From Phycisphaerae bacterium (lineage in GTDB: Bacteria > Planctomycetota > Phycisphaerae > SM23-33): a DNA stretch of 64,000 nucleotides. This document shows, piece by piece, positions 4,343-53,350 of the stretch. The position numbers and the translations under genes are program-made. The DNA lies in NCBI GenBank assembly GCA_049975485.1, contig JBNGDC010000001.1, positions 144,996-208,995 on the forward strand, read 5' to 3'. The notes beneath the pieces are model-generated. The model was given only the letters and a program-made list of their open reading frames with translations, made no database searches and was not told the DNA's origin. Every line of letters starts with the position of its first letter. Within the stretch, counting starts at the first letter, position 1.

Positions 4343-6892
4343 ATGGAGAGACCCTTGAACCGAAACGGCCTTTTTACCCGGTATGCCTGCATAGTAGCCG
4401 TTGTGCTCGTGACCGTATCGGTGTCCTGGACGCAGAACGCGTCACCCGTTGAGGTCGAAGACGGCTTTGCCCAACGTTTCGAGGCCGGCAAGCTCTGGCG
4501 CGACGGCGTCGATATGGCGATGGAGGGGGACTTCTCCGCCGCCTTGCAGAAGGTGCGCAGGGCGGCCGAGATAGACCCCGACGACGAGTACATCGCCGCC
4601 GGCGTGGAGTGCCTGGATGAGTATGTATCCCGGCGGGAGCGGTTCGAGACCGAGCGACGGCTGGAATACTCCGATGCCGTCCGTCGCGTTCGCAGGGGCA
4701 TGCTTGCCCAGGAGTATCTGCCCAAGCTTGCCGCCGCCGAGCTGCATGAGCCCCTGCGCAAGAAGGTCGAGCAGGCCATCATCGAGCAGTACAACTCCGT
4801 CAACAGCGCTTCATCGCTTGATGAGCTTTCCGAGCAGGAGGCGCTGGATCTCAGGTCCGAAGTCATCGCCGTAACGGAGAAGATGTCGGCCGGTGTGGAC
4901 CAGGCCGTCGCCATGCTCGACGGCGACGACAGTGAATACGCCCGTCAGTTCGCCGAGGCCGCCGAAGAAGTCTCCTACTACATTCGGGTGTACCGCAACG
5001 GCTGGCGGGGCGTGCGGCTTGAATCCGCCGACGACCGCGCAAAGGCCGCCGATGTCCTGGCGGAGGTGGAGGACAAACTGGCAGACGCTATCTCCGAGCT
5101 GGAGATGATGGTGGATAAAAAGCCCTGGCGGCGGGCGCTGTCGCAGGGAATCCTGGCGAGAGAGCTGCACCGCAAGGACAACGGCCCGCTTGACGGGAAG
5201 GATTGGTACAACGAGTTGATAGCCCTTGCGGAGGAGCACGCCGAGCAGGCCGTCGCCGACGCCGAGTGGTACGACGCAGCCGCCGCGTACAGCGGCCTGG
5301 AGGAGTTGACCGGCGGCAACGGTCTCTACGAGCAGCAGATGGATCAGGGCCGCAGGCACGTTAGGGTGCTGGGGCTGTATGGCGAGGGCAACCCCGAGAG
5401 CGATACCCAGCCGGTGGATAACACCTGGCAGGAACTGGTAGCCGGCGCCGACGCGAACATGGTTCGCGAGGCCATCCAGCGCCTGGACCAGTATTACGTT
5501 GAGGCGGTGGACTATCGGGACCTGGCGAACGGCGCGCTGCTGGCGATGGAGGTGCTCGCGGATACGCCGCAAGCGGCCGAGAGCTTCGAGACGCTCAACG
5601 ATGAGGAGAAACGTCAGCAGTTCCTCAGCGCCATAAGGAGCATGCGGGAGAACATCGCCGACAAGCAGCAGGTAGGCACGCTGGACCTGCTGTTCATGCT
5701 GAATCACGTGCTGAGGGAATCCGACCGCAGCGTAAAGCTTCCGGCCGAGGTCATCGCCGTGGAGTTCGCCGACGGGATGCTCAACGAACTGGACAAGTTC
5801 AGCTCGATGATCTGGCCGCACGACCTGGCCGACTTCGAAAAGCACACGCGCGGGCATTTCTACGGCGTCGGCATCCAGATTACCAAGGAGATCGGCGAGC
5901 CGCTGGAAGTGGTGACCCCGCTGGCGGGCACGCCGGCGTATCGGGCCGGCATCAAGCCGGGCGACGTCATCATCGCCGTGGACGGCCGCCGCACCGAGGA
6001 CCTGGGCATAGACAAGCTCGTGAGAATGATCATGGGCGAGGAGGGCACGCGAGTGACGCTGAGAATAGAGCGTCCCGGGCGTGTCAAGCCGTTCGACGTG
6101 ACACTCACGCGCGACAAGATCACCATCCGGACGGTCAAGGGCTGGCAGCGTGTGAACGACGAGGGCTGGCAGTACCTGGTGGGCCAGACCGACGGTGTCG
6201 GCTACGTGCGGTGCAGCCAGTTCAGCGAGCAGACGGTAGAGGAGCTTACCGAGGCGCTGGAGCAGGTCAACGGCGACGAAGTGGACGCCCTGGTGCTTGA
6301 CTTGCGGTGGAACCCCGGCGGGCTGCTCAGCTCGGCCGTCGAGGTCGCCGACGAGTTCCTCAATGACCACCGCAGGATAGTCTCCACCAAAGGTCGCCAG
6401 GCGCGCTACGAGGAGCGGTCGGCCAGCCCAAGGGGCGAGTATCTCGACAAACCGCTGGTGGTGCTGGTGAACGACGCCAGTGCATCGGCCGCCGAGATCG
6501 TCGCCGGCGCCCTGCAGGACTGGGACCGGGCCATCGTGGTCGGCGAGCGGACCTACGGAAAGGGCAGCGTCCAGCACGTAATCCGCATACGTCCCGAACG
6601 GTCCATGCTGAAGCTGACCACCGCCTACTACTACCTGCCGCATGGCCGGCTGCTGCACAGGGTCAACGGCAAGGACGAGTGGGGCGTGGCCCCGGATATC
6701 GAGGTCCTGATGACTCCCGAGCAGACCCGCCGCTGGCTGGAGCTGCGACGGGAGACCGACCTTATTCAGGATATCGAGCCGGAAGAACTGAACCGCGAGC
6801 TGTCCAGGCAGTACGAGGCCGACCTGCAGCTACAGACCGCCGTCGTGCTGCTGAAGCTGATGCGACTGGACGAGCAACGCTCCGCGGCTTAG
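4343..6892 (+). CDS. S41 family C-terminal processing peptidase with PDZ domain and a long N-terminal extension
   Basis: The C-terminal half has a PDZ (GIKPGDVIIAVDG) and an S41 core (LDLRWNPGGLL, VVLVNDASASAAEIVAGALQD, GERTYGKGSVQ). There is an N-terminal signal/TM segment, and about 450 aa of Ala/Glu-rich helical sequence precede the protease. Confidence 0.8.
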   Translation: MERPLNRNGLFTRYACIVAVVLVTVSVSWTQNASPVEVEDGFAQRFEAGKLWRDGVDMAMEGDFSAALQKVRRAAEIDPDDEYIAAGVECLDEYVSRRERFETERRLEYSDAVRRVRRGMLAQEYLPKLAAAELHEPLRKKVEQAIIEQYNSVNSASSLDELSEQEALDLRSEVIAVTEKMSAGVDQAVAMLDGDDSEYARQFAEAAEEVSYYIRVYRNGWRGVRLESADDRAKAADVLAEVEDKLADAISELEMMVDKKPWRRALSQGILARELHRKDNGPLDGKDWYNELIALAEEHAEQAVADAEWYDAAAAYSGLEELTGGNGLYEQQMDQGRRHVRVLGLYGEGNPESDTQPVDNTWQELVAGADANMVREAIQRLDQYYVEAVDYRDLANGALLAMEVLADTPQAAESFETLNDEEKRQQFLSAIRSMRENIADKQQVGTLDLLFMLNHVLRESDRSVKLPAEVIAVEFADGMLNELDKFSSMIWPHDLADFEKHTRGHFYGVGIQITKEIGEPLEVVTPLAGTPAYRAGIKPGDVIIAVDGRRTEDLGIDKLVRMIMGEEGTRVTLRIERPGRVKPFDVTLTRDKITIRTVKGWQRVNDEGWQYLVGQTDGVGYVRCSQFSEQTVEELTEALEQVNGDEVDALVLDLRWNPGGLLSSAVEVADEFLNDHRRIVSTKGRQARYEERSASPRGEYLDKPLVVLVNDASASAAEIVAGALQDWDRAIVVGERTYGKGSVQHVIRIRPERSMLKLTTAYYYLPHGRLLHRVNGKDEWGVAPDIEVLMTPEQTRRWLELRRETDLIQDIEPEELNRELSRQYEADLQLQTAVVLLKLMRLDEQRSAA

Positions 6893-7017: not shown

Positions 7018-7099
7018 GCCCCTTCGGGGCTGAGTGCATTATTGCCCCGGACTTCCGGGGGCTGACGCCCCCGGCTATTTCCTGTCGGCCCTTCGGGCC
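7018..7099. other. cluster of GC-rich tetraloop hairpins between convergent genes
   Basis: GCCCC-TTCG-GGGC (7018-7030), CCCCGG-ACTT-CCGGGG (7045-7060), GGGGGC-TGAC-GCCCCC (7057-7072, overlapping the previous one) and GGCCC-TTCG-GGCC (7087-7099). No U-tracts follow. Confidence 0.4.
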
Positions 7100-7182
7100 T
7101 GTTGTGATGCACATGCACTGACTGTCAGCCGGCTCAAGTATGCGTTCGAAGTATTGGGCATCCTCAAACTATTAATCGCAAG

Positions 7183-8701: not shown

Positions 8702-10513
8702 CTATCCGCGTTTCTCGTCGTCGCGCTGCTCATCCGGTGGTGGCGGCGGAGGTGTTTGCGGTCCCTGCTCATGGGGCGAAGACTCGCTTTGCTGTTCGCC
8801 GCCTTGTTGTGCAGGTGGAGGGGGAACCCGCCGGGCGTCCACGACGGCGGTCCGCCCGAGCACGTCGCCTATCCGCTGGCGGTAGGGGTTGAACAGCGGC
8901 CAGAGCAGCAGCACCGGGATCGGCAGCAGCCAGAGCGTCTCGATGACCTTCGAGATGTTCCGCAGCAGCACCCCCCGCAGGTCGGGGCGCCGGCCGTTGT
9001 TGCCGCAGACGCGCAGCCCCAGCGCCATCTTGCCCAGCGTCGCCGAGAAGCGAAGCTCCATGAACACGCAGTAGGCGATGAACAGCAGGATCACCGAAAT
9101 CAGCACGTACGCGGACTCCGCCGTCATGGAGTATTCCTGCGCGGTGGTCCATATGTTCTCCACGTCGCGCATCTGTTCCAGCGGAACCTGTGTCACCATC
9201 AGCACCCCGCCGAGAAGATGGAAGGGCAGGGCGTCGATGGCGGCGGCCGCCAGACGCTTCGTCAGCGCCCCCGGCCGGAGTGTCTGGGGCAGCGTGAAGA
9301 TCCTGTCCGTCGATTTCGGCCTGAGGAATAGCAGCGGCACGAACATCGCGATTGCGATGCCCCACATGAAATACTCCATGATGGCCTGACCGCTGGTGTC
9401 CGGCGGCTGCCGGGCGAAGATGTCCAACTCGCCCCGCAAGACGGACCGGCCGCTGGTGTCGGACGTAATCAGCACGTACTTGCCGTCGATGCCGGCAACC
9501 ACGGCCACCTGGTCGCCGAGTCGCGACGCCAGGGGCGTTCTGTCGGCGTCGATGGTGAGTTCCTGCTCATCCATCCGCAGCGGCTGGACGCTCATCTGCT
9601 CATCCGCCCGCCAGGTGGCAAGGAGCAGCCGTTTCTTGCCGGTCTGTTCGTCGTCAACGGTCAGTACTATGCGCGGCCGCCCGGTGAGAGTGAGCATGCC
9701 GGCGACGTGGGCGGCGGAGGCCGTTTCGCCCAGCGGCAGCTCCCGCCAGTCTTCCTGCTGCGCTGAAACGAAGAGGCGATTCGGCCGGCCGTCGGTCGGC
9801 GCCAGCAGGACGTACATCAGCCCGTCGGCGACCGTGGCGAAGACACGGCCGTTCTCCGTAGCGATATCACCCAGCCAGTGCCACTGACTGCCGCGACTCT
9901 GAAAGACACCCAGCCGGATGTGTGTCGGCTCCCGGGGTTCGGCAGGGGCGGTTGTCGTAGTCGGGTGCTCGTCGGCGGGGGCCGTCGCGGTGGTGGTGTC
10001 CGCCCCGGCAGGGGCGGTGGAGGAGGTGGTGGGTTCTCTGACCGGCAGCGCGACCACGGCGGCCACCGAGCCGGAGTTACCGCCGTGCAGTCCCTCCGCC
10101 CGGCACATCGCCAGCGGGCGAGCGTCTTCGTCCCATCGCTCGTGCGACGGATATGGCAGTATGGTCCGCTCGCCGTCGATGGTGTAAAGCTGATAAGCGC
10201 GAGGGTCCGCCAGCAGCAGCTGCAACTGCGGGCCTGTCGCCACACCGGCGGCCGGCGGCTCGGTGAGTTTTTCACGCGCAACATAACGTGCGGCCCACTC
10301 CCACTTTTCGCCGGCGGGCCGGACTACCACGCCATAGCGGCCTTCGCTGTCGGGGTGGACAAGCCAGAGGGCATGCTCATTGCCGGTGAGTATGCTCGGT
10401 CGCTCAGCCGCGGCGGTAGTGGTGGCGTCTTCACCGTCGGAGGCGGCCACACACGCACCGGCGGCCGCGATGCACAGCAGCGTCGATATGGTACGAACAC
10501 GCCGCAAGCTCAC
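8702..10513 (-). CDS. RDD-family membrane protein with a large N-terminal extracytoplasmic domain
   Basis: N-terminal signal peptide. The C-terminal region has a multi-TM RDD signature (RLAAAAIDALPF...YRQRIGDVLGRTAVVD) and a Pro/Gln/Glu-rich tail. Its start overlaps the upstream gene stop by 4 nt. Confidence 0.6.
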   Translation of the reverse strand: MSLRRVRTISTLLCIAAAGACVAASDGEDATTTAAAERPSILTGNEHALWLVHPDSEGRYGVVVRPAGEKWEWAARYVAREKLTEPPAAGVATGPQLQLLLADPRAYQLYTIDGERTILPYPSHERWDEDARPLAMCRAEGLHGGNSGSVAAVVALPVREPTTSSTAPAGADTTTATAPADEHPTTTTAPAEPREPTHIRLGVFQSRGSQWHWLGDIATENGRVFATVADGLMYVLLAPTDGRPNRLFVSAQQEDWRELPLGETASAAHVAGMLTLTGRPRIVLTVDDEQTGKKRLLLATWRADEQMSVQPLRMDEQELTIDADRTPLASRLGDQVAVVAGIDGKYVLITSDTSGRSVLRGELDIFARQPPDTSGQAIMEYFMWGIAIAMFVPLLFLRPKSTDRIFTLPQTLRPGALTKRLAAAAIDALPFHLLGGVLMVTQVPLEQMRDVENIWTTAQEYSMTAESAYVLISVILLFIAYCVFMELRFSATLGKMALGLRVCGNNGRRPDLRGVLLRNISKVIETLWLLPIPVLLLWPLFNPYRQRIGDVLGRTAVVDARRVPPPPAQQGGEQQSESSPHEQGPQTPPPPPPDEQRDDEKRG

Positions 10514-11448
10514 GGATCAACCCCTCGGGCCTCAAGCTCGGCATCCACCTGGAACACCGGGATATCGCCGGGCAGGAATCTGCGGAAACCCGTCGCCGCC
10601 CGCGACCAGCGGTCCTCGGCGGTCATGTCGCTGAGCACGAGGTGCACGCTGCTGCGCCGCCGCGGCCAGCTTATGCGGATGTCCGTGGGCATTTCCGGCG
10701 GCGTCTGGCGCCCGGTATCGGCGATGGGGCGGTAGCGGTCCAGCTCCGCCGTCATTACTCGTTCGCCGTTGTTGTCGAAGAGGTTCACGCGGAAAGGCCG
10801 GCGCGGCTCCTCGTCCGACCAGCGGAAATACATCTCGCGTCTGAACAGGATCTTCCCGGTAACCGCCTGGCGGTCGATGTAGCTTACCACGTACGCGCAC
10901 GGGTCGCGGGACAGCGTCACGGCGGCCACCGGCAGCGTGGTGAAGTCGTCGGGAAGCTCCGAGATGCTCAGGACGCTGACAAGCTGGTTGGGGTCCAGCG
11001 GAAGCTGCTCCACGCCGGGGGCGCCGGCGTATTCGTGCCGGCCGAACCACGCCTGGCCGTGCTCGCCGAAGCGGTACCACAGGTAGTACACGCCCTCCTC
11101 GACGTTGCTGCCGAGTCGGAACAGCTCGACGGCCGCCGTCTCGCGCCCGATGAGGACAAAGTCGTGCGGACCGGTCGCCTCGGGACCCTTGCCCAGCAGC
11201 AGCAGGGCGTTGGGTGACGCCAGCGGGCTTGTGGAGCCCCAACTGAAGCTCCGCCCGTCCTCGTCGGTGAGCGTTACGGCCAGTCTGGCTCGCGCCCAGA
11301 GCCGCGGGACGGCCGATGCGTTGCCGTTGTATTCGGCGACGAGCGTCTCGACGGGCACGGCCGTCTCCGGGCAGGTCGGCGGGCAGCCGCACAGCGCCAC
11401 GGCCAGGCCGTAAAGCGGAAGCAGGGCGATTCTGCGGGAGGCGATCAC
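10510..11448 (-). CDS. lipoprotein, function unknown
   Basis: Signal peptide with lipobox (LAVALCGC). 312 aa with no recognizable catalytic motif. It is translationally coupled (4-nt overlaps) to both neighbours. Confidence 0.5.
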   Translation of the reverse strand: MIASRRIALLPLYGLAVALCGCPPTCPETAVPVETLVAEYNGNASAVPRLWARARLAVTLTDEDGRSFSWGSTSPLASPNALLLLGKGPEATGPHDFVLIGRETAAVELFRLGSNVEEGVYYLWYRFGEHGQAWFGRHEYAGAPGVEQLPLDPNQLVSVLSISELPDDFTTLPVAAVTLSRDPCAYVVSYIDRQAVTGKILFRREMYFRWSDEEPRRPFRVNLFDNNGERVMTAELDRYRPIADTGRQTPPEMPTDIRISWPRRRSSVHLVLSDMTAEDRWSRAATGFRRFLPGDIPVFQVDAELEARGVDP

Positions 11449-11948
11449 AGGTCGGTCTCCAGTATCTGGTTCAGTTGCTCGCTTACCTCGGCGATTTTCT
11501 CTTCGTCCATGTGCGGGTCGAGGACGCGGCAGGTTTCGTCGGCGCCTTTGTAACGCATCGTCCAGACTTCCCGCCCGTCGTCGAGTTTTTCGCTGCCTTC
11601 ATAGACCAGCAGCTTCTTGCGCATCAGCACCAGCGCCAGCACAAAGCGGAAGTTCACGCGCGAGTCGCTCTCGTCGCCGTCGAGGCGGCGGAAGAAGTTC
11701 ATCAATACGTCGTCGTCCACGAAGAGCTTGCGCTTCTGCTTCGGCTCGGGCGCCCGCGCCCGCCAGACGGCCACCACCGATTCGTCCTCGTCGGCGCCGT
11801 CGTAGCAGGACGGGCAGTAGTCGCGTCGCTCGAACTGCTCGTCCTGTTCGCGGACGGTCGCCACGTACTCGTTGCCCGGCTCGAAGCACCGCCGGCACAG
11901 CGAGCAGACGCCCGTGGGCCTGGATATATTCTCGTAGTCTCTGGCCAT
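11445..11948 (-). CDS. cytoplasmic zinc-ribbon protein, function unknown (first gene of a 3-gene operon)
   Basis: CSLCRRC...CPSCY gives two CxxC pairs, with an acidic-basic C-terminal half. No family assigned. Confidence 0.45.
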   Translation of the reverse strand: MARDYENISRPTGVCSLCRRCFEPGNEYVATVREQDEQFERRDYCPSCYDGADEDESVVAVWRARAPEPKQKRKLFVDDDVLMNFFRRLDGDESDSRVNFRFVLALVLMRKKLLVYEGSEKLDDGREVWTMRYKGADETCRVLDPHMDEEKIAEVSEQLNQILETDL

Positions 11949-21754: not shown

Positions 21755-22513
21755 GTGGCTCGTAAGCTGTTTATTGCCGGAAACTGGAAGATGAACCTCA
21801 ACCGCGCCGAGGCCGGTGAACTGGCCGGCGCGCTTAAGAGCAAAATCGGCGATGTTGACGCGGTGGACCTGGCCGTCTGCCCGCCGATGGTGCACCTGGA
21901 GACGGTGGGCAAGGCCGTCGCGGGCAGCAAAATCGCACTCGGCGCGCAGAACATGTTCTATGAGGACAACGGGGCGTTCACCGGGGAGACATCGTCGGCG
22001 ATGCTTCTCGATGCCGGTTGCCGGTATGTGATACTCGGCCACAGCGAGCGGCGGCACGTAATCGGGGAGTCCGACGAGCTTATCAATCGCAAGGTCCTCA
22101 AGGCGCTGAGTGACGGACTCGAGCCGATTCTGTGCGTGGGCGAGCTGCTGGAGCAGCGCGAGGCGAACGAGACCATGGAAGTCGTCCGCCGCCAGGTCGA
22201 GGTCGGCCTGGAAGGTGTCTCGTCCGCCGACGCCAAGCGTGTTACCATCGCGTACGAGCCGGTCTGGGCCATCGGCACCGGCAAGACCGCCACGCCGGAC
22301 CAGGCGCAGGAAGTGCACGCGATGATTCGCAAGCTGCTGAGCGAGCGTTTCGACGGGCCTGTGGCCGATACAATCAGGATACAGTACGGCGGGTCGGTGA
22401 AGCCGTCCAACGCGGGCGAGCTTCTGGGACAGCCCGATATCGACGGCGCCCTGGTGGGCGGGGCGAGTCTCAAGGCCGACGACTTTGCGGGAATCGTGGA
22501 AGCCGGTCAATGA
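21755..22513 (+). CDS. tpiA: triosephosphate isomerase
   Basis: GTG start with an AAAGGAG RBS. GNWKMN, GHSERR and AYEPVWAIGTG motifs. Confidence 0.95.
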   Translation: MARKLFIAGNWKMNLNRAEAGELAGALKSKIGDVDAVDLAVCPPMVHLETVGKAVAGSKIALGAQNMFYEDNGAFTGETSSAMLLDAGCRYVILGHSERRHVIGESDELINRKVLKALSDGLEPILCVGELLEQREANETMEVVRRQVEVGLEGVSSADAKRVTIAYEPVWAIGTGKTATPDQAQEVHAMIRKLLSERFDGPVADTIRIQYGGSVKPSNAGELLGQPDIDGALVGGASLKADDFAGIVEAGQ

Positions 22514-22559
22514 GTCGCGCCGCCCAGAAAGCAGCGCGGTATTAACGGAGAGCTGGCAG

Positions 22560-23210
22560 ATGGACATCTTTCTCGGAGTTCTGTTCCTTATAGTCTGCAT
22601 ATTGCTGATCGCGGTAATCCTGCTTCAGCGGGGCCGTGGCGGTGGTCTTGGCTCCGCTTTCGGGGGCGGCGCGGGCAGCAGCGCCTTCGGTACGCGGACC
22701 GGCGATGTGTTCACGTGGGTCACGATCGTGCTGACGGCCGCTTTTCTGCTGCTGGCCGTCGGGACGGTTATCGCCCACAAGCAGGAGCCGGACCAGGTGG
22801 CGACGCCCGAGTTCAGCCCCGCGCCGGGTCCCATAGATGAGCCGGTTAACGTCACCATAAGCTCGGAAACGCGGGGAGCGGAAATCTGGTACACGGTTGA
22901 CGGCGGCGAGCCGAAGCAAAATGAGTCCATGCCGTATGAGAAGAACCCCGTTCCGATCGAGCCGGGCATGACTCTCAGGGCGAAGGCCTACCGCCCCGGC
23001 TGGCAGGACAGCGAGGTGGCCGTGGGCGCCTACCTGGAACCGGTGCCGCCTGAGACGCCCGAAACAGAGGAGCCGGAAGCGCCGGCTGTTGACGCCGAAG
23101 ATGATGAGCAGTCGCAGACGGCGCCGGCGGGGGAGTCGGAGACCAAAAACACCGAGGAACCGACCACCCGGCCGGTAGAGGAAGCAACTACTCAACCGGT
23201 TGGGAGTTAG
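22560..23210 (+). CDS. secG: preprotein translocase subunit SecG with a roughly 140-aa C-terminal extension
   Basis: The conserved tpiA-secG pair is present. Two TM helices and a Gly-rich loop (LLQRGRGGGLGSAFGGGAGSSAFGTRTGD). The extension contains EIWYTVDGGEP...TLRAKAYRPGWQDSEV, resembling the chitobiase/hexosaminidase C-terminal (CHB_HEX_C) motif, and then an acidic Pro/Glu/Thr tail. Confidence 0.75.
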   Translation: MDIFLGVLFLIVCILLIAVILLQRGRGGGLGSAFGGGAGSSAFGTRTGDVFTWVTIVLTAAFLLLAVGTVIAHKQEPDQVATPEFSPAPGPIDEPVNVTISSETRGAEIWYTVDGGEPKQNESMPYEKNPVPIEPGMTLRAKAYRPGWQDSEVAVGAYLEPVPPETPETEEPEAPAVDAEDDEQSQTAPAGESETKNTEEPTTRPVEEATTQPVGS

Positions 23211-23220
23211 GGAATCTACA

Positions 23221-24105
23221 ATGGCGGTTCATTCCATGACGGGCTACGGCAGCGCCGCGGGCGTTGTGGACCGGATCGAGTATTCGGTGGAGGTCCGCAG
23301 CGTCAATAATCGCTACTTCAAGCCCAGCATACGTCTGCCGGACGTCTGGTCGCGGGCCGAGCCGGAGATAGAAAAGCTGCTGCGGTCGCAGATACGTCGC
23401 GGAACGGTGTCTGTCTCAGTGCAGATGAAGGTGCACGACGCCGAGGCCGCCTGGGACGTTAACGTGCCGGCCCTGAACCGCTACATCGAGCAGCTCCGTC
23501 CGCTGGAGGTGGAGGCGAACCCCATGCTGCATGTGGATATCGCCTCTATGATGCAGCTTCCCGGCGTGTGCGAGCCGCCCGACAGCGAGAAGATAATCGA
23601 GGCCTCGCGTGACAAGCTTTTTGCGCTTATCAACGAGGCCCTGGATGCGCTGGTGCGTATGCGTGCCCGCGAGGGTGAGTCCATCGAGCAGGACCTGAGG
23701 GAGAACTGCGACCTGATAGAGCAGCAGTTGGCCACGGTGCAGAAGCGCTCGCCGGTCGTGGTGGAGGAATACCGCCGGCGACTGACGGAAAGAATACGGG
23801 AGCTGACTGAGAACTCCGACCCGTCGCTCGCCGAGCAGACCCTCTCGCGCGAGGTGGCGGTCTTCGCCGACCGATGCGACATAGCCGAGGAGGTCTCGCG
23901 CCTCAGCGCCCACGTGGAGCAGTTCCGCAAGGCGCTTGGCGAGCGGGAGCCGTCCGGGCGTAAACTGGAGTTCATCGCCCAGGAGATGCTCCGCGAGGCC
24001 AACACCATCGCCTCGAAATCGGGCGATATGGAGATCTCGCGGGCGGTCGTGGAGATAAAGACCGGCGTGGACCGGATCAAGGAACAGGTTCAGAACGTTC
24101 AGTGA
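23221..24105 (+). CDS. yicC: YicC-family stress-induced protein
   Basis: N-terminal MAVHSMTGYG and a C-terminal DUF1732-like region. The yicC-gmk-rpoZ arrangement is conserved. Confidence 0.8.
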   Translation: MAVHSMTGYGSAAGVVDRIEYSVEVRSVNNRYFKPSIRLPDVWSRAEPEIEKLLRSQIRRGTVSVSVQMKVHDAEAAWDVNVPALNRYIEQLRPLEVEANPMLHVDIASMMQLPGVCEPPDSEKIIEASRDKLFALINEALDALVRMRAREGESIEQDLRENCDLIEQQLATVQKRSPVVVEEYRRRLTERIRELTENSDPSLAEQTLSREVAVFADRCDIAEEVSRLSAHVEQFRKALGEREPSGRKLEFIAQEMLREANTIASKSGDMEISRAVVEIKTGVDRIKEQVQNVQ

Positions 24106-24959: not shown

Positions 24960-25532
24960 ATGACCGGACAGCCCGACACGCCGTCGCCGCAGCACGAGGT
25001 GCTGCTGTGCGTTACGGGGGGTATTGCGTGCTACAAGTCGGCGGACCTGGCGAGCAAGCTGGTGGCCGACGGCTTTGGCGTGACGGTGGCGATGAGTGAG
25101 GCGGCCGAGAGGTTTGTCGCGCCGCTTACGTTCCAGACGCTCACGCGGCGACGGGTTTACACCTCGCTGTGGCAGTCCACGGAGCAGTATGAATCCACGC
25201 ATATCTCAACGTCGGACCTTGCGGAGCTGATGATAGTCGCGCCGGCGACGGCGGACACTATCGCCAAGCTGGCGACAGGCCTGGCCGACGATATTGTCTC
25301 CACGCTGCTGCTGGCCCGCCCGGCCGATTGCCCGCTGCTGCTGGCGCCGGCCATGAACACGCGCATGTGGCAGGCGCCGCCGACCCAGGCCAACATCGAA
25401 AAGCTCAAGGGCTGGGGCGTGCATACGGTAGGCCCGGCCGAGGGGCGGCTTGCATGCGGCGACACGGGACCCGGCAGAATGGCCGAGCCGGCGGACATAC
25501 TCGCCGCAGCCAAAAAGCTTCTGAGCGGGTAG
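24960..25532 (+). CDS. coaC: phosphopantothenoylcysteine decarboxylase (flavoprotein, CoaC half of CoaBC)
   Basis: LLCVTGGIACYK, MIVAPATADTIAKLATGLADD and PAMNTRMW motifs. It is encoded separately from coaB. Confidence 0.85.
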   Translation: MTGQPDTPSPQHEVLLCVTGGIACYKSADLASKLVADGFGVTVAMSEAAERFVAPLTFQTLTRRRVYTSLWQSTEQYESTHISTSDLAELMIVAPATADTIAKLATGLADDIVSTLLLARPADCPLLLAPAMNTRMWQAPPTQANIEKLKGWGVHTVGPAEGRLACGDTGPGRMAEPADILAAAKKLLSG

Positions 25533-25563
25533 AATGTCGTCGCCGTGATCGGGAACCAGGGGA

Positions 25564-25761
25564 ATGAAGGTCCGAGAAGTGATAAAATGGCTTCAGGATG
25601 ATGGATGGGTGCAGGTCGTGCAGCGAGGAAGCCATCGCCAGTTCAAGCATCCTGTGAAGCCCGGGAGAGTAACGGTTGCCGGTAATCCCTCCCACGACCT
25701 TGCCCCTGGAACACTGAACAGCATCGTGAAGCAGGCCGGACTTAAGGGTCGCAAGCCATGA
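25564..25761 (+). CDS. hicA: HicA-family mRNA interferase toxin
   Basis: 65 aa: MKVREVIKWLQDDGWVQVVQRGSHRQFKHP...GTLNSIVKQAGL, matching the YcfA/HicA fold signature. It overlaps hicB by 4 nt. Confidence 0.8.
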   Translation: MKVREVIKWLQDDGWVQVVQRGSHRQFKHPVKPGRVTVAGNPSHDLAPGTLNSIVKQAGLKGRKP

Positions 25762-25976
25762 ACTACCTCGTGGTCATCGAGAAGGCGGACGGGAATTACT
25801 CGGCCTATGTACCCGACCTGCCCGGATGCGTCGCCACAGGGGAGACGCTGGAGGAGGTCCGTTCGGCCGTCCGCGACGCGGTGGAGATGCACCTTGCCGG
25901 GCTTCGCGAGGATGGTCAGGAAATTCCGCCGGCACGGGCCATGGGCGAAGTGATCGAAGCCGGCTCCGGTCAATAA
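25758..25976 (+). CDS. hicB: HicB-family antitoxin (UPF0150)
   Basis: 72 aa: YLVVIEKADGNYSAYVPDLPGCVATGETLEEVRSAVRDAVEMHL. Confidence 0.8.
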   Translation: MNYLVVIEKADGNYSAYVPDLPGCVATGETLEEVRSAVRDAVEMHLAGLREDGQEIPPARAMGEVIEAGSGQ

Positions 25977-26130
25977 ACCGAGGGTTGGAAAATTCGGCCG
26001 ATTGTGCACTTTTCCAACGCGCCGGGGCTCCATCGCCAAGGTATGGGTAGCTCGGACCAGTCGGAACTGTGCGACGTCACCCGTACGGCACGGCCTTTAC
26101 CGCCACAGCGGCAATCGGTAAGCTCCGACC

Positions 26131-26763
26131 ATGCGGATACTCGTAACAGCCGGTCCCACGCGCGAGCCGATCGACTCGGTTCGGTTCATCACCAACGCCT
26201 CCAGCGGACGCATGGGCTGCGCGGTGGCGTCGGCCGCTGTCGAAGCGGGTCACGACGTGACGCTTCTGCTCGGTCCGTGCCCGGCCGAGCCGCCCGCCGG
26301 CTGCGAGGTGCTACGCTTTATGACGGCCGCGGAACTGAAGCGACTGCTTGAAGAGCACTTCCCCGCCTGCGACGCGCTGGTGATGGCGGCGGCCGTTGGA
26401 GACTTCACGCCCGAAAGACCGGCCGTTGGCAAGCTGCGGCGTTCGTCGGGACCGGTGGAGCTTCGACTGCTGCCTACCGACGACCTGCTCGCCGGCGTTG
26501 CCGCAGGCAAACGACCGGGTCAGAGAATCGTCGCCTTTGCCGTGGAAGCCGGCGACGAGGACGCGATGTCCGCCGCGGCCAGGCGCAAGCTCACCGCCAA
26601 GGGGGCCGATTTCATCGTGGTCAACTCTCCGGAGGCAATGAGCGCCGAGACCAGCCGTGCAGCCATCCTCACCGCCGACGATGTCCTGCTGCCCTGGGGC
26701 GAGCGGACCAAAACGGAGCTGGCGGCGGAGATAGTCAAACTACCGGCGACGGGCGGGAATTGA
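26131..26763 (+). CDS. coaB: phosphopantothenate--cysteine ligase (CoaB half of CoaBC)
   Basis: ILVTAGPTREPIDSVRFITNASSGRMG, AAAVGDF, KADFIV-type motifs. It sits 600 bp downstream of coaC, with hicAB in between. Confidence 0.8.
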   Translation: MRILVTAGPTREPIDSVRFITNASSGRMGCAVASAAVEAGHDVTLLLGPCPAEPPAGCEVLRFMTAAELKRLLEEHFPACDALVMAAAVGDFTPERPAVGKLRRSSGPVELRLLPTDDLLAGVAAGKRPGQRIVAFAVEAGDEDAMSAAARRKLTAKGADFIVVNSPEAMSAETSRAAILTADDVLLPWGERTKTELAAEIVKLPATGGN

Positions 26764-33012: not shown

Positions 33013-35679
33013 TCAGTCGCGGAAGGGGCCCAGGTCGCGATACAGCAGTCGCGAACCTGTCGGAATGTTCCCGTACTCCTCGAATAGCAGCAGTTCGTTC
33101 TCTTCCTCGAACAGGCAGCCGGGCAGATAGTAATCCTCCTGCGGGCCGACGGTCCAGAACCGCCCGACGTTGTGCCCGTTGAGCAGAATCTGCCCTTTCC
33201 TGGCGCCAACGATGTGCAGAAACAGCGGACGGTCCGGCTCTGAACACTTGAACGTGGCGCGGTACCACGCCGGCATGTCCTTGCCCACGACGCGTCCCGC
33301 TTCCTGGGGCACGCTCCAGGGGCGGTAGGACCACTTGGCGCCGGCCGTTATGTCCTCCTGAAGCTCGTGCAGTTCGATACCCTTCAGTGCGGTCTCGGTC
33401 ACGTCGCCCCACAGCAGTATGGTCAGGCGGTTCTTGCCCTTGCGAAGCTCCGAGCCGAGCGTTACGTCGGCGAAATTCCGTCCTGTAGAGGGGAAGAAGC
33501 CCACCGTCCTGTCGTTGCAGAGAATGGCGAAATGGTGGGGCACGTCCCGCAGGCAGAGGTGCACGGGCGTAACGGTCTTCAGAGAAATATCCAGCTCTGC
33601 GGAGTAAACCGGCATTTTGAGAAGCTCATCAAGATAGCTACTCAAGGCCCGTGGTATGATCCTTCTGCTGAAGCTCTCCTGCTGCTTGATGCGCAGTTTG
33701 CCGGTTCGCATCGAACGGGCGTCCCAGATGGGACCGAAAAGCCCTTTCTGCTCGCCAAGTGTAGGCCCGTCCGCGAAACGCCCCATGTTATCGACCAGCA
33801 GCGTAAGGACGTTCATGCCCCGCTTGAACGAAACGTCTATGGGTGAGCGGGTAGCGCCGTCGCCGCGGCCCCAGACGCCGGCAAGTTCGCCATTGTGGAA
33901 TATGATGGCCCTGTCTTCGCAGTCCGGCAGAAGCAGTTTGCGCTTCTTGGCGCGGGGTTGCTCGACCTCCGCCCGGTACCACACATACCCGTAATGCACG
34001 CCCAGGCGGTCTGCGTCACGGGGCCTGTCGAGCTTCTCCCACGGAAGCTCCTCGTCCAGTGGCTCGTTGCACACCAGTATCCGCGTCCACTTGCCCAGGC
34101 GGGGTGGCTGGCTCTTGCGCTCCGCGGGCGGCTTGGACTTCCTGCGGCTGATTTTGCCGTCGATCAATGAGAGCGTCGTGACCTGCCTGGCCTTGCCCCA
34201 GGTAAGGTCCTCCGCCGTCTCGCCGACGAACTCCGGACCGAAGATGATGCTGTCCTCTATCGGCCAGGTGCGCATGGCCAGTTCGCTTGACAGCAGCACT
34301 ATGGTCACACCCTCATGCTCAATGAGCTTCGGTTCATCGCCGGACGGGACCTTTGCGGAAACTTCCCTGGTGTTGATGCTGATGCGGGCCTCGAAGCCCG
34401 CCGGGCCGTGTAGCAGCAGATACTTCTCCGCGAAAAGTCCCAGGGGTGTCAGGTTTGCATAGTCCAGCTCGGCCTGTTCGTTCAGCAGCAGGTCCATGGG
34501 CACCAACACCGCCCCCAGCGGCTCCAGCGGCACGGTGAGCTTCGTACCGTCCGGCAGTGTCAGCCCGGCCTGTTCGGTGTGGCGGGAGCCGTTGCTGGTA
34601 ACCACGGCCCAGGCGCCGGCGTGCCCGGCGGTGTTGAGCACGTCGGTTCCGTCGGTAATCCTGGCGCCGGCCTCGGGCATGACGCTGCCGGCAAGGAACC
34701 TTCCCATGTGCGTGGCGGTGAGGTTCACCAGTCGGGTGGTGTAGAACTTTTCGGTCAGTCCGCCGCCCTCTGACACGGGGGAGTCCAGGTCGTAGCTGGT
34801 GGCACAGAAGGCGTCGTCGCCGTCGGCGAGGCGTCCGCCGCGGAAGTCGAAGTTCGTCCCGCCGCAGTAGGTGTAGTAGTTCACCTGGGCGCCGCAGCCG
34901 ATCGCCTCCAGCATCAGCCGGGCCACGTCCGCCGGTTCATGCGAGAAGTGCTTGCGTCCCCACGCATCCGCCCACGTCGGACAGAATTGCGAGAGTATCA
35001 GCGGGCGGTTGGGTTGTCGGCGTCGCAGTTGGTTCAGTCGGCTGACCACATCTTCGCCGGCGGCCGCACATTCGATGCTGTTGGACGCCGGGGGGTCGGT
35101 GAAGTCGTTGCAGTTGATTATCGGAATATCGAAGCCCGACCGGCGGAACAACTGGTTGATGAATTCCAGATAGTTCTGCCTGTCCGGCATCGTGGTCATC
35201 CAGTAGCGATGCTCATTCTGGATGAGAATTATGTTCCCGCCGCGTGTTACCTGCAGCTCCGCCAGGCGGGGCAGAACCTGGCCGAGGTACTTGTCGCTGT
35301 AGTGCATGAACGCGGCGTTGCTGGTGCGATAGCTGATCCCGCCCTTGGTGGTCAGCCACGCCGGAAGCCCGCCGAAGTCTAGGTCCGCCCCGATATAAGG
35401 ACCGGCCCGAAGTATCACGTACAGCCCCAACTCCGCGGCGAGGCGGACGAACTCCACTATGTCCCTGTCGCCGGAGAATCGCCACTTGCCCTCATGCGGC
35501 TCGTGGAAGTTCCAGGCGATCGGCGTGGCGACGCAGTTTAGCCCCCCGCGACGCGCCTTCAGCAGACGGTCGGGCCAGCATTCCGCGGGTATGCGGAAGT
35601 AGTGCACCTCGCCGCTGGACAGCCAGACTGGCTTGCCATCGACAAGGAAACAACGGTCGTCATTTGTGACAGTCGGCAT
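33013..35679 (-). CDS. glycoside hydrolase family 35 beta-galactosidase
   Basis: GPYIGADLDFGGLPAWL is the GH35 signature, with catalytic-region IQNEHRY. 888 aa with no signal peptide. Confidence 0.8.
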   Translation of the reverse strand: MPTVTNDDRCFLVDGKPVWLSSGEVHYFRIPAECWPDRLLKARRGGLNCVATPIAWNFHEPHEGKWRFSGDRDIVEFVRLAAELGLYVILRAGPYIGADLDFGGLPAWLTTKGGISYRTSNAAFMHYSDKYLGQVLPRLAELQVTRGGNIILIQNEHRYWMTTMPDRQNYLEFINQLFRRSGFDIPIINCNDFTDPPASNSIECAAAGEDVVSRLNQLRRRQPNRPLILSQFCPTWADAWGRKHFSHEPADVARLMLEAIGCGAQVNYYTYCGGTNFDFRGGRLADGDDAFCATSYDLDSPVSEGGGLTEKFYTTRLVNLTATHMGRFLAGSVMPEAGARITDGTDVLNTAGHAGAWAVVTSNGSRHTEQAGLTLPDGTKLTVPLEPLGAVLVPMDLLLNEQAELDYANLTPLGLFAEKYLLLHGPAGFEARISINTREVSAKVPSGDEPKLIEHEGVTIVLLSSELAMRTWPIEDSIIFGPEFVGETAEDLTWGKARQVTTLSLIDGKISRRKSKPPAERKSQPPRLGKWTRILVCNEPLDEELPWEKLDRPRDADRLGVHYGYVWYRAEVEQPRAKKRKLLLPDCEDRAIIFHNGELAGVWGRGDGATRSPIDVSFKRGMNVLTLLVDNMGRFADGPTLGEQKGLFGPIWDARSMRTGKLRIKQQESFSRRIIPRALSSYLDELLKMPVYSAELDISLKTVTPVHLCLRDVPHHFAILCNDRTVGFFPSTGRNFADVTLGSELRKGKNRLTILLWGDVTETALKGIELHELQEDITAGAKWSYRPWSVPQEAGRVVGKDMPAWYRATFKCSEPDRPLFLHIVGARKGQILLNGHNVGRFWTVGPQEDYYLPGCLFEEENELLLFEEYGNIPTGSRLLYRDLGPFRD

Positions 35680-48213: not shown

Positions 48214-48378
48214 TCTGCTGCTGTCCTTTCTGTTTGGGATCAGGCGGGCATACTATCAGCGGCGCCGGTCCGCGGCAAGCGGCGCCTGCGCCTGGGCCGG
48301 CGGATTAGACGTTGACGCGGCGGTCGGCGGGTGGAGAATACGGCCTCTTGCGGCTCGAGAATGCGAAGGAGGCAGGTC

Positions 48379-51300
48379 ATGCGATCCGCCAAGGACCTTT
48401 TGGAAATATGGAACGCGCCGCCGGCGGAGTTCCGCAGCGCGCCGTTCTGGTCGTGGAACGACGAGCTGGACCCTCTGCGCCTTTGCCGTCAGATAGACAG
48501 CATGCACGCCGCCGGGATGGGCGGCTTTTTCATGCACAGCCGCTACGGGTTGAAGACGCCGTACCTCTCCGACGACTGGTTCGCATGCGTGACGGTTTGC
48601 ATAGAACGGGCCGCCGAATTGGGCATGAAAGCATATCTCTACGACGAGGACCGTTGGCCTTCCGGACCGGCCGGCGGAATCGTTACCCGCGACAACCCGG
48701 AGTACGCCAAGCACGTGCTTACCGCCGGTCCGCCCGCGGAGGAAGGCGAAGCTGTCGTCCGCCAGGGCGTCTTCGCGGTAAATCTGGACGAGCAGGGGCG
48801 GCTTGTTGACTATCAGCCGGTCGAAGACCCGGCCGGGGACACCTCCGAAAAGCAGGTGCTTGCCTTTGACGTGTTCGTCGCCGGTCCCGCCGGGCAGCAT
48901 AACGACGCAGCGTATCTGGACACGATGAACGGCGAGGCCGTCGAGGAATTCATCCACGTTACCCACCAGGCGTACGCGGACCGGTACTCCAAGCACTTCG
49001 GCGGCGTAATCCCGGCGATATTCACCGACGAGCCGAACTATGGCGGATGGGGTTCCAGTCGCTCCAGGCCGCACCTGCAGTGGACGCCCAACCTGCCGCG
49101 CGAGTTTCGCCGCCGTCGCGGGTACGATCTGCGCGACCACCTGCCGGAACTGGTCTATCCCACAGCCGCCGGGTTTTCGAAGGTGCGCTACGACTACCGC
49201 CGGACGCTGACGGAGCTGTTCGTGGAGAGCTTCACCCGGCAGATCGGGATATGGTGCGGCAAGCATAATATCTCGCTGACCGGGCACATGCTGGAAGAGC
49301 CGACGCTCAGCTCTCAGGTCAAGGTCGTGGGCGCATGCATGCCTCACTACGAGCACATGCAGTGGCCCGGTATCGACATGCTCACCGACCAGGCGGACGA
49401 GCTGACCACGGCCAAGCAGTGTTCCTCCGTGGCGGACCAGCTCGGCCGGGACCGTGTGCTCAGCGAGCTGTATGGCTGCACGGGCTGGGATTGGCCGCTG
49501 GAGGGGCACAAGTTCGTCGGCGACTGGCAGTTCGCCTGCGGCGTGAACTTCCGCTGCCCCCACCTTACGCACTATTCGCTCGCCGGCGGCGCCAAGCGCG
49601 ACTACCCCGCGAGCATCTTCGCCCACAGTCCGTGGTGGGACTACTACAACGTGGTGGAGGACTATTTCGCACGGCTGGGCTTCATGCTCACCCGCGGCAA
49701 GCCCATACGCGACGTGCTGGTCGTCCATCCGGTCGAAAGCGCCTGGGGTCTGATGGCGCCTGGGGAGGACGGCACGGCGGGGGTCCGGCCCCTGGAGGAG
49801 TCGCTGGAGCGGCTCATACGCACGCTGTCGGGCCGGCACTGGGACTGGGATTTCGGCGACGAGTCGCTGTTGGAGAAGTACTCGAAGGTCTCCGGCGATA
49901 CCCTTTCAGTCGGCGAGATGAGCTACAAGCTGGTCGTGGTTCCGCCGTGCGAGACGCTGCGGTCCTCCACGGTGGAACTGCTGAAGCGTTTCGCCGCCCA
50001 GGGCGGGGCGGTGATGTTCATCGGTGAGGCGCCGCGTCGCGTGGACGCGGTTGAGAGCCGCGATGCACTGGAACTGGCGGCGGACGTTGACGGCTGCCAG
50101 GACGATACCGAGCAGATATCGCTTACCCTGGGTAAGCTGTTGGACCGCCGTGTGTCGCTGCGAGAGGGGGAGAACGAGGCCGAGTTTGTCTGGTCGATGC
50201 TGCGGGATATCAAAGGTGGTCGGGTGCTGTTCTGCCAGTCGCACGACCGCAAGCAAGGGCATCGTCTGACGGCGGAGGTCGAGGGTGCCCAGCCGGTGCT
50301 GTTGTGGGACCCGCGGACCGGCCGCATAAGCCAGGTGGAATCGGAGCAGTCGGGCAATCGGGTGCGGTTCGAGCTGGATCTTCCGCCGACCGGGTCGGCC
50401 CTGGTGACGTTGGGTGTCTCGCACCGCGACGCCGAGGAAGCGGTGCCCGAGCCGACAATCGCGGACAGCCGGAGTCTGTCGGGGCCTTTCCCCGTGGAGC
50501 TGGTCGAGCCGAACACGATGCCGCTGGACTACTGCCGCTTCCGCACGGGTGACGGGCAGTGGTCGCAGCCGGTACCAACACTCAAGGCCGACACCATGAT
50601 CCGTGAGCACTTCGGGTTGGGCGAACGCGGCAACAAGGGGCCGCAGCCGTGGTATTTGTATCGCACCGGGGTGTTGGATACCGCACCTCGGGGACGCTGC
50701 GAGATGGCATGGGATTTTCACGTAACCACGCTGCCGCCGCGGTGCATGCTGGCGCTGGAACGGCCGGGCGACTTTAAGGTCAGCGTCAACGGCAAGGCGG
50801 CCGGCGGGGCGAAGGGTTTCTGGGTGGATGAGGACATCCGCACCATCGACATCACCGCTCTGCTGGTCGAGGGCGACAACGAGGTGCGCCTGACGTTCGA
50901 CTATCGGCCCGACATGGAGCTGGAGGACATGTACCTGGTCGGCGAGTTCGGCGTCCGCCCGCTGGCTGGAGAAACGTTTGAGCCGGGCAACCTTACGCTT
51001 GTCGAGCAGCCCACAGAGCTGTCAACCGGCTCCTGGTTGAGTCAGGGCCTGCCGTTCTATGGCGGCGCCGTCAGGTACCGCATTGGCGTCGAGAAGCCGG
51101 CCAGTGGCCGCGTCCGGCTCCGTCTGGACAAACCGGCCGCTACGGCAGTGGCCGTACACGCCGGCGGGCGGACGTGGGCTTTGCCCTGGCCGCCGTTTGT
51201 GGTGGACATTACCGACGGTCTGTCGGAAGGGGAAAACGAGGTGGTAGTGGAGGCAATCGCCGGCCGCAAGAACATACTCGGTCCGCTGCATACGCCGTGG

Positions 51301-51414
51301 GAACGGTGGACCGGGCCAGGGGAGTTCCACCCGGACAACCCGAAATGGAGCAGGCAGTACCGGTTGAACGATCATGGATTGATGGGCCCGCCGGTCGTGG
51401 AAGTTGCCGGCTGA
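48379..51414 (+). CDS. large cytoplasmic glycoside-hydrolase-like protein (family not assigned)
   Basis: The N-terminal region FWSWNDELDP...MGGFFMHSRYGLKTPYLSDDWF resembles the catalytic-barrel openings of several GH families. 1011 aa from ATG 48379 (AAGGAGG RBS). Confidence 0.4.
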   Translation: MRSAKDLLEIWNAPPAEFRSAPFWSWNDELDPLRLCRQIDSMHAAGMGGFFMHSRYGLKTPYLSDDWFACVTVCIERAAELGMKAYLYDEDRWPSGPAGGIVTRDNPEYAKHVLTAGPPAEEGEAVVRQGVFAVNLDEQGRLVDYQPVEDPAGDTSEKQVLAFDVFVAGPAGQHNDAAYLDTMNGEAVEEFIHVTHQAYADRYSKHFGGVIPAIFTDEPNYGGWGSSRSRPHLQWTPNLPREFRRRRGYDLRDHLPELVYPTAAGFSKVRYDYRRTLTELFVESFTRQIGIWCGKHNISLTGHMLEEPTLSSQVKVVGACMPHYEHMQWPGIDMLTDQADELTTAKQCSSVADQLGRDRVLSELYGCTGWDWPLEGHKFVGDWQFACGVNFRCPHLTHYSLAGGAKRDYPASIFAHSPWWDYYNVVEDYFARLGFMLTRGKPIRDVLVVHPVESAWGLMAPGEDGTAGVRPLEESLERLIRTLSGRHWDWDFGDESLLEKYSKVSGDTLSVGEMSYKLVVVPPCETLRSSTVELLKRFAAQGGAVMFIGEAPRRVDAVESRDALELAADVDGCQDDTEQISLTLGKLLDRRVSLREGENEAEFVWSMLRDIKGGRVLFCQSHDRKQGHRLTAEVEGAQPVLLWDPRTGRISQVESEQSGNRVRFELDLPPTGSALVTLGVSHRDAEEAVPEPTIADSRSLSGPFPVELVEPNTMPLDYCRFRTGDGQWSQPVPTLKADTMIREHFGLGERGNKGPQPWYLYRTGVLDTAPRGRCEMAWDFHVTTLPPRCMLALERPGDFKVSVNGKAAGGAKGFWVDEDIRTIDITALLVEGDNEVRLTFDYRPDMELEDMYLVGEFGVRPLAGETFEPGNLTLVEQPTELSTGSWLSQGLPFYGGAVRYRIGVEKPASGRVRLRLDKPAATAVAVHAGGRTWALPWPPFVVDITDGLSEGENEVVVEAIAGRKNILGPLHTPWERWTGPGEFHPDNPKWSRQYRLNDHGLMGPPVVEVAG

Positions 51415-52558: not shown

Positions 52559-53350
52559 TTACCAGAAGAAACGGGCCCCGCGATGGGTAAAGCGGTGCTC
52601 CAGGTCTTCGGGCTCGGTCCAGATGACCCCGCCGGTGATCAGTCCCACGTGTGAGCCGGTAGGCCAGAGCCGGTCGTAAAGGTGATTGGCGCCCCAGCGG
52701 TCGGCGTCCCAGGTGGTAATCCAGTTGCCGTCGCCGAGCTGACGGTTCATGTCCGTCCAGAGGAAATCGTAATAGCTGTCGTCGTACAGGTTCACAGGGA
52801 ACAGCGGCTTGCCGGTGTTCGGGGGGTCGAACATCCAGTTCTTCAGGTCGTGCTGGAGCCGTGGATCTCCACCCCAGCAGAAATACCCGATTACGGTGGA
52901 CCATCCCTCGGAATCGTTTTCCGGTTCCCAGAAGTCGTCCCGATTCCATGCCGGGTTCGTGGGCGAGTAGAACATCTTCCGCTGGACGTTGTAGTTCTCG
53001 ATCATCAGGTCGCGGTAGTACGTGCTGATCCAGTAAACGACCTGGTGTTCATTGACGTCCACTTCCGGATTATGCGACATCTGCGGCAGACGGCCGTCGT
53101 GGCTGTCGGCATACATGTGAAAGGCCGTCACCAGGTTCCTGATGTTGGTGGCGCAGATGGTCTCCCGGGCGATTCGCTTGGCCTGTCCCAGAGCGGGCAT
53201 GAGTATGCTCATCAACAGCGCGATAATGGCTATGACGACCAGAAGCTCGATAAGCGTAAAGGCCCCGGCCATCCGTCTTCTCCGGAGGGCATTTCCCGGC
53301 TTCGCGGCGGCTGTATGGCTACGCACGTTGGATGACTGATAATCTGACAT
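52559..53350 (-). CDS. prepilin-type N-terminal cleavage/methylation domain protein (DUF1559-like pseudopilin)
   Basis: GAFTLIELLVVIAIIALLMSILMPAL is a class III signal. The C-terminal HVGLITGGVIW resembles the DUF1559 terminal motif. The leader may start at an internal Met (MAGAF). Confidence 0.7.
   Translation of the reverse strand: MSDYQSSNVRSHTAAAKPGNALRRRRMAGAFTLIELLVVIAIIALLMSILMPALGQAKRIARETICATNIRNLVTAFHMYADSHDGRLPQMSHNPEVDVNEHQVVYWISTYYRDLMIENYNVQRKMFYSPTNPAWNRDDFWEPENDSEGWSTVIGYFCWGGDPRLQHDLKNWMFDPPNTGKPLFPVNLYDDSYYDFLWTDMNRQLGDGNWITTWDADRWGANHLYDRLWPTGSHVGLITGGVIWTEPEDLEHRFTHRGARFFW

Follow-up and report, generated by a model that had tools for sequence, protein, structure and literature searches.

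A SecG Subunit Carrying a Conserved, Most Likely Periplasmic Beta-Sandwich in a Lineage of Phycisphaerae

The secG gene in the analysed window (the whole 64-kb stretch of DNA studied) almost certainly encodes a real, conserved and orthologous SecG that carries a periplasmic beta-sandwich. The original prediction of a two-TM SecG core followed by a chitobiase-C-like beta-sandwich and a tail was borne out, in frame and with a PF13290-type sandwich, by Pfam and NCBIfam matches above their cutoffs, with exact coordinates. The fuller statement, in which a canonical SecG has gained a periplasmic module that acts as a rigid spacer, is considered evenly balanced between right and wrong.

Gene Locus and Reading Frame

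The secG gene was located between tpiA and a yicC-like gene on the same strand.

21755..22513, plus strand: tpiA (triosephosphate isomerase), upstream neighbour; PF00121, E 6e-99
22545..22552, plus strand: Shine-Dalgarno-like ACGGAGAG, 7 nt 5' of the secG ATG, read directly from the sequence
22560..23210, plus strand: secG coding sequence, ATG at 22560 and stop at 23208-23210; 216 aa plus stop
23221..24105, plus strand: yicC-like gene, downstream neighbour; PF03755 and PF08340

The secG ATG lay 46 nt past the tpiA stop, and the yicC-like gene started 10 nt past the secG stop. The gene order tpiA-secG-yicC-gmk-rpoZ was conserved at the secG locus, with tpiA immediately 5' of secG in 69 of 73 related loci and yicC immediately 3' in 68 of 75. 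No second SecG and no further copy of the beta-sandwich was found in the 64-kb window. The synteny common to domain-bearing and tail-only relatives marks this secG as an orthologue, the housekeeping copy rather than a paralogue. NCBI contains a protein with the same 216-aa sequence (P0001), named 'MAG: preprotein translocase subunit SecG [Phycisphaerae bacterium]', which bears out the Planctomycetota origin guessed in the original prediction. Along secG, GC3 stood at 0.76 (core), 0.82 (domain) and 0.66 (tail); in the extension, the two alternative frames were interrupted by 4 and 9 stops.

Conservation and Distribution of the Fusion

A search of 5.8 billion clustered proteins gave 1715 matches, of which the best 120 were analysed. 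Scanning GTDB with a single genome for each species revealed relatives in 395 species, all Phycisphaerae or Planctomycetota MAGs. Orthologues in related bacteria, to which the original prediction had pointed for a check, carried the module: SecG and the PF13290/PF13287 domain occurred together in all of the best 120 of 1715 homologues, and SecG with at least one beta-sandwich was present at 68 of 80 loci (best 80 of 395 species). Every named match to the fusion was a MAG. As counted with our own HMMs, 102 of the 120 homologues had one copy of the module, 17 had two and 1 had three. Doubled or tripled beta-sandwiches were seen in P0008, P0009-P0014, L011 and L047, for example. No truncated or decayed module was found among the complete ORFs examined.

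The mean pairwise identity was 0.74 for the core and 0.44 for the domain. Omega was calculated by the Nei-Gojobori method, for which only the closest 5-8 locus pairs were usable; in these pairs the core gave 0-0.27, the domain 0.2-0.7 and the tail 0.3-0.8. A dN/dS calculation over all pairs was rejected, because strong GC3 bias compresses dS in divergent pairs and produces spurious omega values near or above 1. Omega below 1 in all reliable close pairs points to purifying selection on the module.

The probability that the fusion is an artefact (a frameshift, a missed stop or a chimeric assembly joining secG to a neighbouring ORF) is negligible. The same architecture was present in 120 protein clusters and at 68 of 80 MAG loci from many independent studies and assemblers. 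The same error cannot have arisen in so many assemblies made independently of one another, so this explanation was refuted; nothing was found in its favour. The coding signature was also continuous with the alternative frames closed, and the fixed junction between core and domain belonged to the first strand of the domain. The frameshift, stop or poor conservation against which the original prediction had cautioned was thus replaced by closed frames and conservation across genomes.

SecG Core and Membrane Topology

Residues 1-75 contained the usual two-helix hairpin.

22563..22640, plus strand: TM helix 1, residues 2-27; AF2 helix H2-27, Kyte-Doolittle window >1.6
22641..22694, plus strand: Gly-rich loop, predicted cytoplasmic, residues 28-45, GGLGSAFGGGAGSSAFGT; SecG signature, aligned to 3dl8_E, 2akh_X and E. 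coli SecG
22695..22775, plus strand: TM helix 2 (TM2), residues 46-72; AF2 helix H46-72

The Pfam family PF03840 (SecG) matched residues 4-70 with 60.5 bits (cutoff 29.2), and the NCBIfam secG equivalog TIGR00810 matched with 63.2 bits (cutoff 30.85). The family profile matched the PDB SecG chains 3dl8_E (1.5e-14), 2akh_X and 5nco_j, with values from 1.5e-14 to 7e-4. Identity to E. coli SecG was 38% over 73 aa. The motif LLQRGRGGGLGSAFGGG aligned with SecG of E. coli and A. aeolicus, and the class motif LLQxG[KR]G...FG was present. In the AF2 model, which was built on 23 homologues, the pLDDT of the loop (residues 28-45) was 51-64. Residues 1-75 presumably fulfil the normal SecG role at the SecYE periphery, where they would stimulate SecA-driven translocation.

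Two hydrophobic segments and no third were found in the 216-aa protein. The inter-helix loop had 3 K/R versus 1 D/E, and the N-terminus and the flank after TM2 were acidic. In SecG, the loop that connects the two TMs is known to be cytosolic (PMC8082313). Because these sequence rules agree with the established two-TM/cytosolic-loop topology, the whole extension was placed in the periplasm, where it most likely lies; it had been called extracytoplasmic from the start, and the charge bias, the two hydrophobic segments and the known cytosolic loop agreed with that. Signal-peptidase cleavage after TM2 (between VIA and HK here) was considered and rejected. Position -1 was A in just 48 of the 120 homologues and V, L, W or another residue in the others, so no conserved cleavage site follows TM2.

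Structure and Relatives of the Beta-Sandwich Module

The extension begins with a short junction and continues into the folded module.

22776..22799, plus strand: fixed-length junction, residues 73-80, HKQEPDQV; family consensus [FYH]-R-P...V
22800..23039, plus strand: Ig/FN3-like periplasmic beta-sandwich (location as predicted above), residues 81-160; PF13290 / PF13287

Two Pfam families matched the extension above their cutoffs, PF13290 (CHB_HEX_C_1) at residues 87-153 (48.4 bits, cutoff 22, E 9e-13) and PF13287 (Fn3_assoc) at residues 98-157 (43.2 bits, cutoff 23, E 4e-11); the fold similarity proposed for this region was therefore found. The motif EIWYTVDGGEP...TLRAKAYRPGWQDSEV was within residues 108-153. 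AF2 modelled residues ~81-160 as a six-strand beta-sandwich with a pLDDT of 97-98. Its fold was the same as that of the solved PF13290/PF13287 ('GH29D-like') members.

A constant stretch of about 8-10 residues separated the module from TM2 at its periplasmic end. In alignment A1 there were zero indels from TM2 to P83, though the junction sequence varied; P83 and P87 were invariant, and V80 and F85 were nearly so. The core-to-domain gap was identical in 116 of the 120 homologues. Within the junction, R occupied position 74 in 93/120 and P position 75 in 96/120.

The closest match of the module in both structure and sequence was AmGH29D aa 500-563, inside the linker domain (aa 490-571) of this enzyme. 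The next structural matches included Ig-like repeats of the GhpA grappling hook, PKD domains and FN3 domains. The AmGH29D linker domain (aa 490-571) of the Akkermansia fucosidase positions a separate CBM32 (PMC10067855), and glycan binding by AmGH29D has been assigned to the separate GBLD and CBM32 domains (PMC10067855). A family-profile search over 1.84 billion representative proteins gave 5240 matches at E <= 1e-30. Its best 150 matches were tandem-array proteins of 738-6828 aa with 8-73 module copies. These proteins (P0121-P0270) were giant beads-on-a-string chains of the PF13290-type module, and P0121 reached 6828 aa and 73 copies. Counting SecG fusions among the 5240 matches was abandoned, the top 150 and probably most of the others being giant tandem-repeat proteins.

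Conservation was then compared between the 120 SecG-attached copies and 2017 copies from tandem arrays. The column entropies of the two sets were correlated (r = 0.80). Eighteen conserved positions were common to both, including P83, F85, P87, V98, Y111, T112, D114, G115, P118, Y126, A141, A143, S151 and Y158. Four positions (P135, G136, R142 and R145) were conserved only on SecG-attached copies. R145-x-G-W148 was missing from the distal copies of multi-domain SecGs and had at first looked specific to the membrane-proximal copy; it was rejected as a SecG-specific motif, since the 2017 generic repeats have W in 49% and K/R in about 60% at these positions. W148 itself was conserved in 81% of SecG copies versus 49% of generic repeats. 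Because of the shared conserved positions, the tandem arrays and the missing CBM family match, the module, judged from sequence, behaves as a generic Ig-like structural repeat or spacer.

No recognised CBM family was matched at E <= 1 in the Pfam scan, in which only SecG, PF13290 and PF13287 matched. The description of the module as carbohydrate-binding-like was not upheld, given the absent CBM match, the homologous linker of AmGH29D and the tandem arrays of 8-73 copies; that label came from the family name, not from evidence. It is quite unlikely that the module is a glycan or cell-wall anchor, as the original prediction implied. Its ligand would be peptidoglycan, a different polysaccharide of the envelope or a glycolipid, and the translocon would thereby be tethered or positioned relative to the wall. 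The Pfam family owes its name to chitobiases and hexosaminidases and is common in glycoside hydrolases, and the organism appears to degrade polysaccharides, with sulfatase, GH35 and GH106 genes in the window. A remote lead is the E. coli glycolipid MPIase, which is reported to interact with SecYEG and to be needed for SecG inversion (PMC11413397). Against such an anchor, the one close relative with a solved structure uses the homologous domain as a linker, no aromatic platform was conserved specifically in SecG copies, and long tandem arrays are typical of structural Ig-like repeats. The name 'chitobiase/hexosaminidase C-terminal domain' calls for caution in annotation, as it invites an unsupported carbohydrate-binding reading.

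C-Terminal Tail

The module is followed by a low-complexity segment that runs to the stop codon.

23040..23207, plus strand: disordered Pro/Glu/Thr/Ala-rich tail, residues 161-216; net charge -14

The tail (PVPPETPETEEPEAPAVDAEDDEQSQ...) comprised 56 aa. Its pLDDT was 54-67 in the AF2 model, where it was without secondary structure, and it was the least conserved region of SecG. Among the 120 homologues the tails were 7-90 residues long and consisted of 21% P, 21% A, 14% T and 9% E, with net charges from -34 to +15 (median -2). The tail had been described as acidic, which is correct for this protein; acidity is peculiar to this tail and its closest relatives and is not a conserved property.

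The tail of P0058 consisted of PETQPAEEPE repeated four times, and the tails of some homologues were near-perfect Glu/Pro-rich decapeptide repeats. Such decapeptide tails recall the Pro-rich periplasmic rod of TonB. Because the SecGs of sister lineages and of E. coli also have tails, the tail was counted as an ordinary feature and the module as the novelty. From the sequences compared, the tail appears to be an expanded form of an ordinary SecG feature, and the novelty would be the folded module between TM2 and the tail.

Tail-Only SecGs of Sister Lineages and History of the Module

The lowest-scoring related loci were without the beta-sandwich and had 35-86 S/T/P/A/G-rich residues after TM2. 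A profile made for the tail-only form retrieved 120 more proteins (P0271-P0390), which matched PF03840 only and were 121-227 aa long (median 153). Named tail-only SecGs were labelled Sedimentisphaerales or Phycisphaerae. Two of them, on contigs of 4.2-4.6 Mb, had the same tpiA-secG-yicC-gmk-rpoZ order; owing to this common gene order, domain-bearing and tail-only SecGs were regarded as orthologues. Long tails, in SecGs of 121-227 aa and with no folded domain, were also seen in L058, L071, L073-L078 and L080-L082. Long SecG tails may be a trait of the whole class.

In a neighbour-joining tree of the 71-column SecG core, the two forms were split with 2 parsimony changes, and pure clades of 117 and 119 sequences were obtained; as the samples were picked by similarity to two queries, the tree shows the separation of the forms and not their full history. 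The pattern suggests that the module was inserted in one large Phycisphaerae lineage and that the fusion is the norm in this branch. The fusion had been called unusual, and it is so relative to model organisms. Within the branch it is the norm, and the SecGs of sister lineages are long as well (121-227 aa).

It is very unlikely that the module is a nearly neutral passenger, that is, an abundant mobile repeat captured once in the disordered SecG tail, harmless and without a translocon function. The tail is permissive, fast-evolving and of low complexity in all relatives, the module is extremely abundant and prone to repetition, the sister lineages are without it, and the omega of the domain reaches 0.4-0.7 in some close pairs. 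A passenger is nevertheless hard to reconcile with an intact fold signature in all 120 best homologues and at the 68 domain-bearing species loci, with omega below 1 in all reliable close pairs and with an invariant junction length.

Possible Function of the Module

The preferred reading is that a PF13290-family Ig/FN3-like sandwich was inserted between TM2 and the Pro/Ala/Thr-rich periplasmic tail. There it would serve the translocon as a rigid stalk or spacer on the periplasmic side, with neither catalytic nor lectin activity, and would carry the flexible tail further into the periplasm. A spacer was preferred over a lectin because of the AmGH29D linker match, the Ig-like, PKD and FN3 matches, the tandem arrays, and the variable copy number and tail length. 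Export of a folded segment of at least 140 residues would make SecG biogenesis reliant on working Sec/YidC, as in CyoA/CoxII. A folded beta-sandwich of 80-240 residues at the C-terminus of SecG would probably prevent topology inversion. With the C-terminus locked in the periplasm, a full inversion of SecG topology would fall outside the cycle in these bacteria.

Several points speak against a simple spacer. A defined docking geometry would also account for the four lineage-specific residues and for the fixed distance from TM2 to the domain. The variable tail, which bears no terminal binding module, leaves a spacer with no obvious target. Retention in at least 68 species under apparent purifying selection argues that the domain does something, and 'spacer' names no task.

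It is possible, though unlikely, that the module is an accessory of the exit site, docking either on SecY/SecE from the periplasmic side or on some partner within the periplasm. Its tasks could be those of a holdase, prevention of backsliding, recruitment of chaperones, SecDF or YidC, or modulation of plug movement, and it would resemble the periplasmic domains of PpiD/YfgM, SecDF P1 and YidC P1. Docking of this kind is consistent with the TM2-domain spacing, invariant despite the varying junction sequence, with the SecG-specific P135-G136 turn, R142 and R145, and with purifying selection on the domain. The P1 loop of E. coli YidC contacts SecG periplasmically, which makes that face of SecG an interaction site (PMC8082313). 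However, the other conserved residues are generic fold determinants common to tandem-repeat copies, and the domain evolves much faster than the core (identity 0.44 versus 0.74). Sister lineages also manage without the domain at the same locus, and duplication to 2-3 copies fits a stalk better than a module that docks precisely. A broader proposal is likewise doubtful: module and tail together would form a functional lineage-specific Sec accessory, an exit-site platform contacting SecY, substrates or the envelope, and, with the SecG C-terminus locked outside, they would show from nature that SecG can work without inversion.

Other Features of the Window

Further features were observed elsewhere in the window.

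7055-7100, plus strand: Acido-Lenti-1 RNA (RF01687), full-length match; Rfam 57.7 bits, gathering score 37
10510-11448, minus strand: ORF of 312 aa, high GC3, no Pfam match
11445-11948, minus strand: ORF of 167 aa, high GC3, no Pfam match
25564-25761, same strand as coaC/coaB: HicA; PF07927, 4.8e-22
25758-25976, same strand as coaC/coaB: HicB; PF15919, 7e-14

The coaBC function was split over window positions 24960-26763, with coaC (Flavoprotein, 24960-25532) and coaB (DFP, 26131-26763) as separate genes. The hicA/hicB toxin-antitoxin pair was located between them on the same strand. The Acido-Lenti-1 RNA, a motif of unknown function, lay just downstream of an S41 peptidase gene (4343-6892). 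The two adjacent high-GC3 ORFs (10510-11948, minus strand) had no Pfam match at E <= 1e-5; they were flanked by genes for an RDD-family protein and an FTCD_C-domain protein. The window also encoded a sulfatase (1370-2812), a GH35 beta-galactosidase (33013-35679, minus strand), a GH106 rhamnosidase-like protein (48331-51414) and a protein with a prepilin-type N-terminal methylation motif (52559-53350, minus strand). Taken together, these four suggest a polysaccharide-degrading lifestyle.

Significance

No paper describing or discussing a fusion of SecG with a beta-sandwich was found by full-text searching on SecG with Planctomycetes, Phycisphaerae, PF13290 and fixed topology. Automatic Pfam annotation already reveals the architecture in public databases, where one UniRef entry bears the name 'GH29D-like beta-sandwich...'. 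The fusion would provide a natural 'topology-fixed' SecG in a whole lineage, present as the orthologous housekeeping copy, and so a test case for the dispute on inversion. It also suggests that domains can become built into the bacterial translocon on its periplasmic side. If the module does act at the exit site, this bacterial translocon would have a domain of its own on the lumenal side, in a way that recalls the lumenal domains of eukaryotic TRAP.

Comparison with Known Systems

The common view of SecG is that of a minimal subunit of two helices that the cell can do without. The two-TM hairpin of the present protein is common to canonical SecG (E. coli b3175, A. aeolicus 3DL8 chain E and T. 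maritima 3DIN chain E). The Gly-rich loop with LLQ-G-[KR]-G...FG is also shared; its cytoplasmic location and that of both termini outside, as in canonical SecG, are predicted from sequence here. E. coli SecG ends in ...SAPAKTEQTQPAAPAKPTSDIPN, a short P/A/T/Q-rich tail after TM2 that occurs here in a longer form. Unlike canonical SecG (75-110 aa; 110 aa in E. coli), the present protein has an added folded module of ~80 residues and a longer tail, giving 216 aa in total. The tail-only SecGs of sister Phycisphaerae have the same locus, a very similar core and a long low-complexity periplasmic tail, but are without the beta-sandwich.

Domains equivalent to the module are found in AmGH29D of Akkermansia muciniphila (PDB 8AYR) and in the Bacteroides GH20 enzyme BT0459 (PDB 6Q63, aa ~546-615). 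In these secreted enzymes the domain joins catalytic and carbohydrate-binding domains, whereas in the present protein it is joined to a subunit of the translocon, with only a disordered tail after it. The giant tandem-repeat proteins (e.g., P0121) have the same domain with the same conserved positions as the SecG module. Their arrays are long and mostly without the P-G turn and the two Arg residues, whereas SecG has 1-3 copies with these residues. CyoA (cytochrome oxidase subunit II) has the same plan of two TMs and a periplasmic beta-domain, and is an analogue rather than a homologue; the CyoA/CoxII domain is a cupredoxin with a redox function and is unrelated to the translocon.

The most debated property of SecG is the proposed flip of its whole topology in each SecA cycle, which has been disputed for about 30 years. 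Topology-fixed or cross-linked SecG was reportedly studied in E. coli by van der Sluis et al. in 2006. The inversion of SecG topology was proposed by Nishiyama et al. (1996), as cited in PMC8082313 and PMC9437254, and topology-fixed SecG was the subject of work by Sugai et al. (2007), as cited in PMC9437254. SecG-PhoA and the present SecG both have a folded periplasmic domain at the C-terminus, which should prevent topology inversion. The topology-fixed E. coli forms (SecG-PhoA and cross-linked SecG) are engineered and artificial, whereas the present form is natural and has been kept across a lineage.
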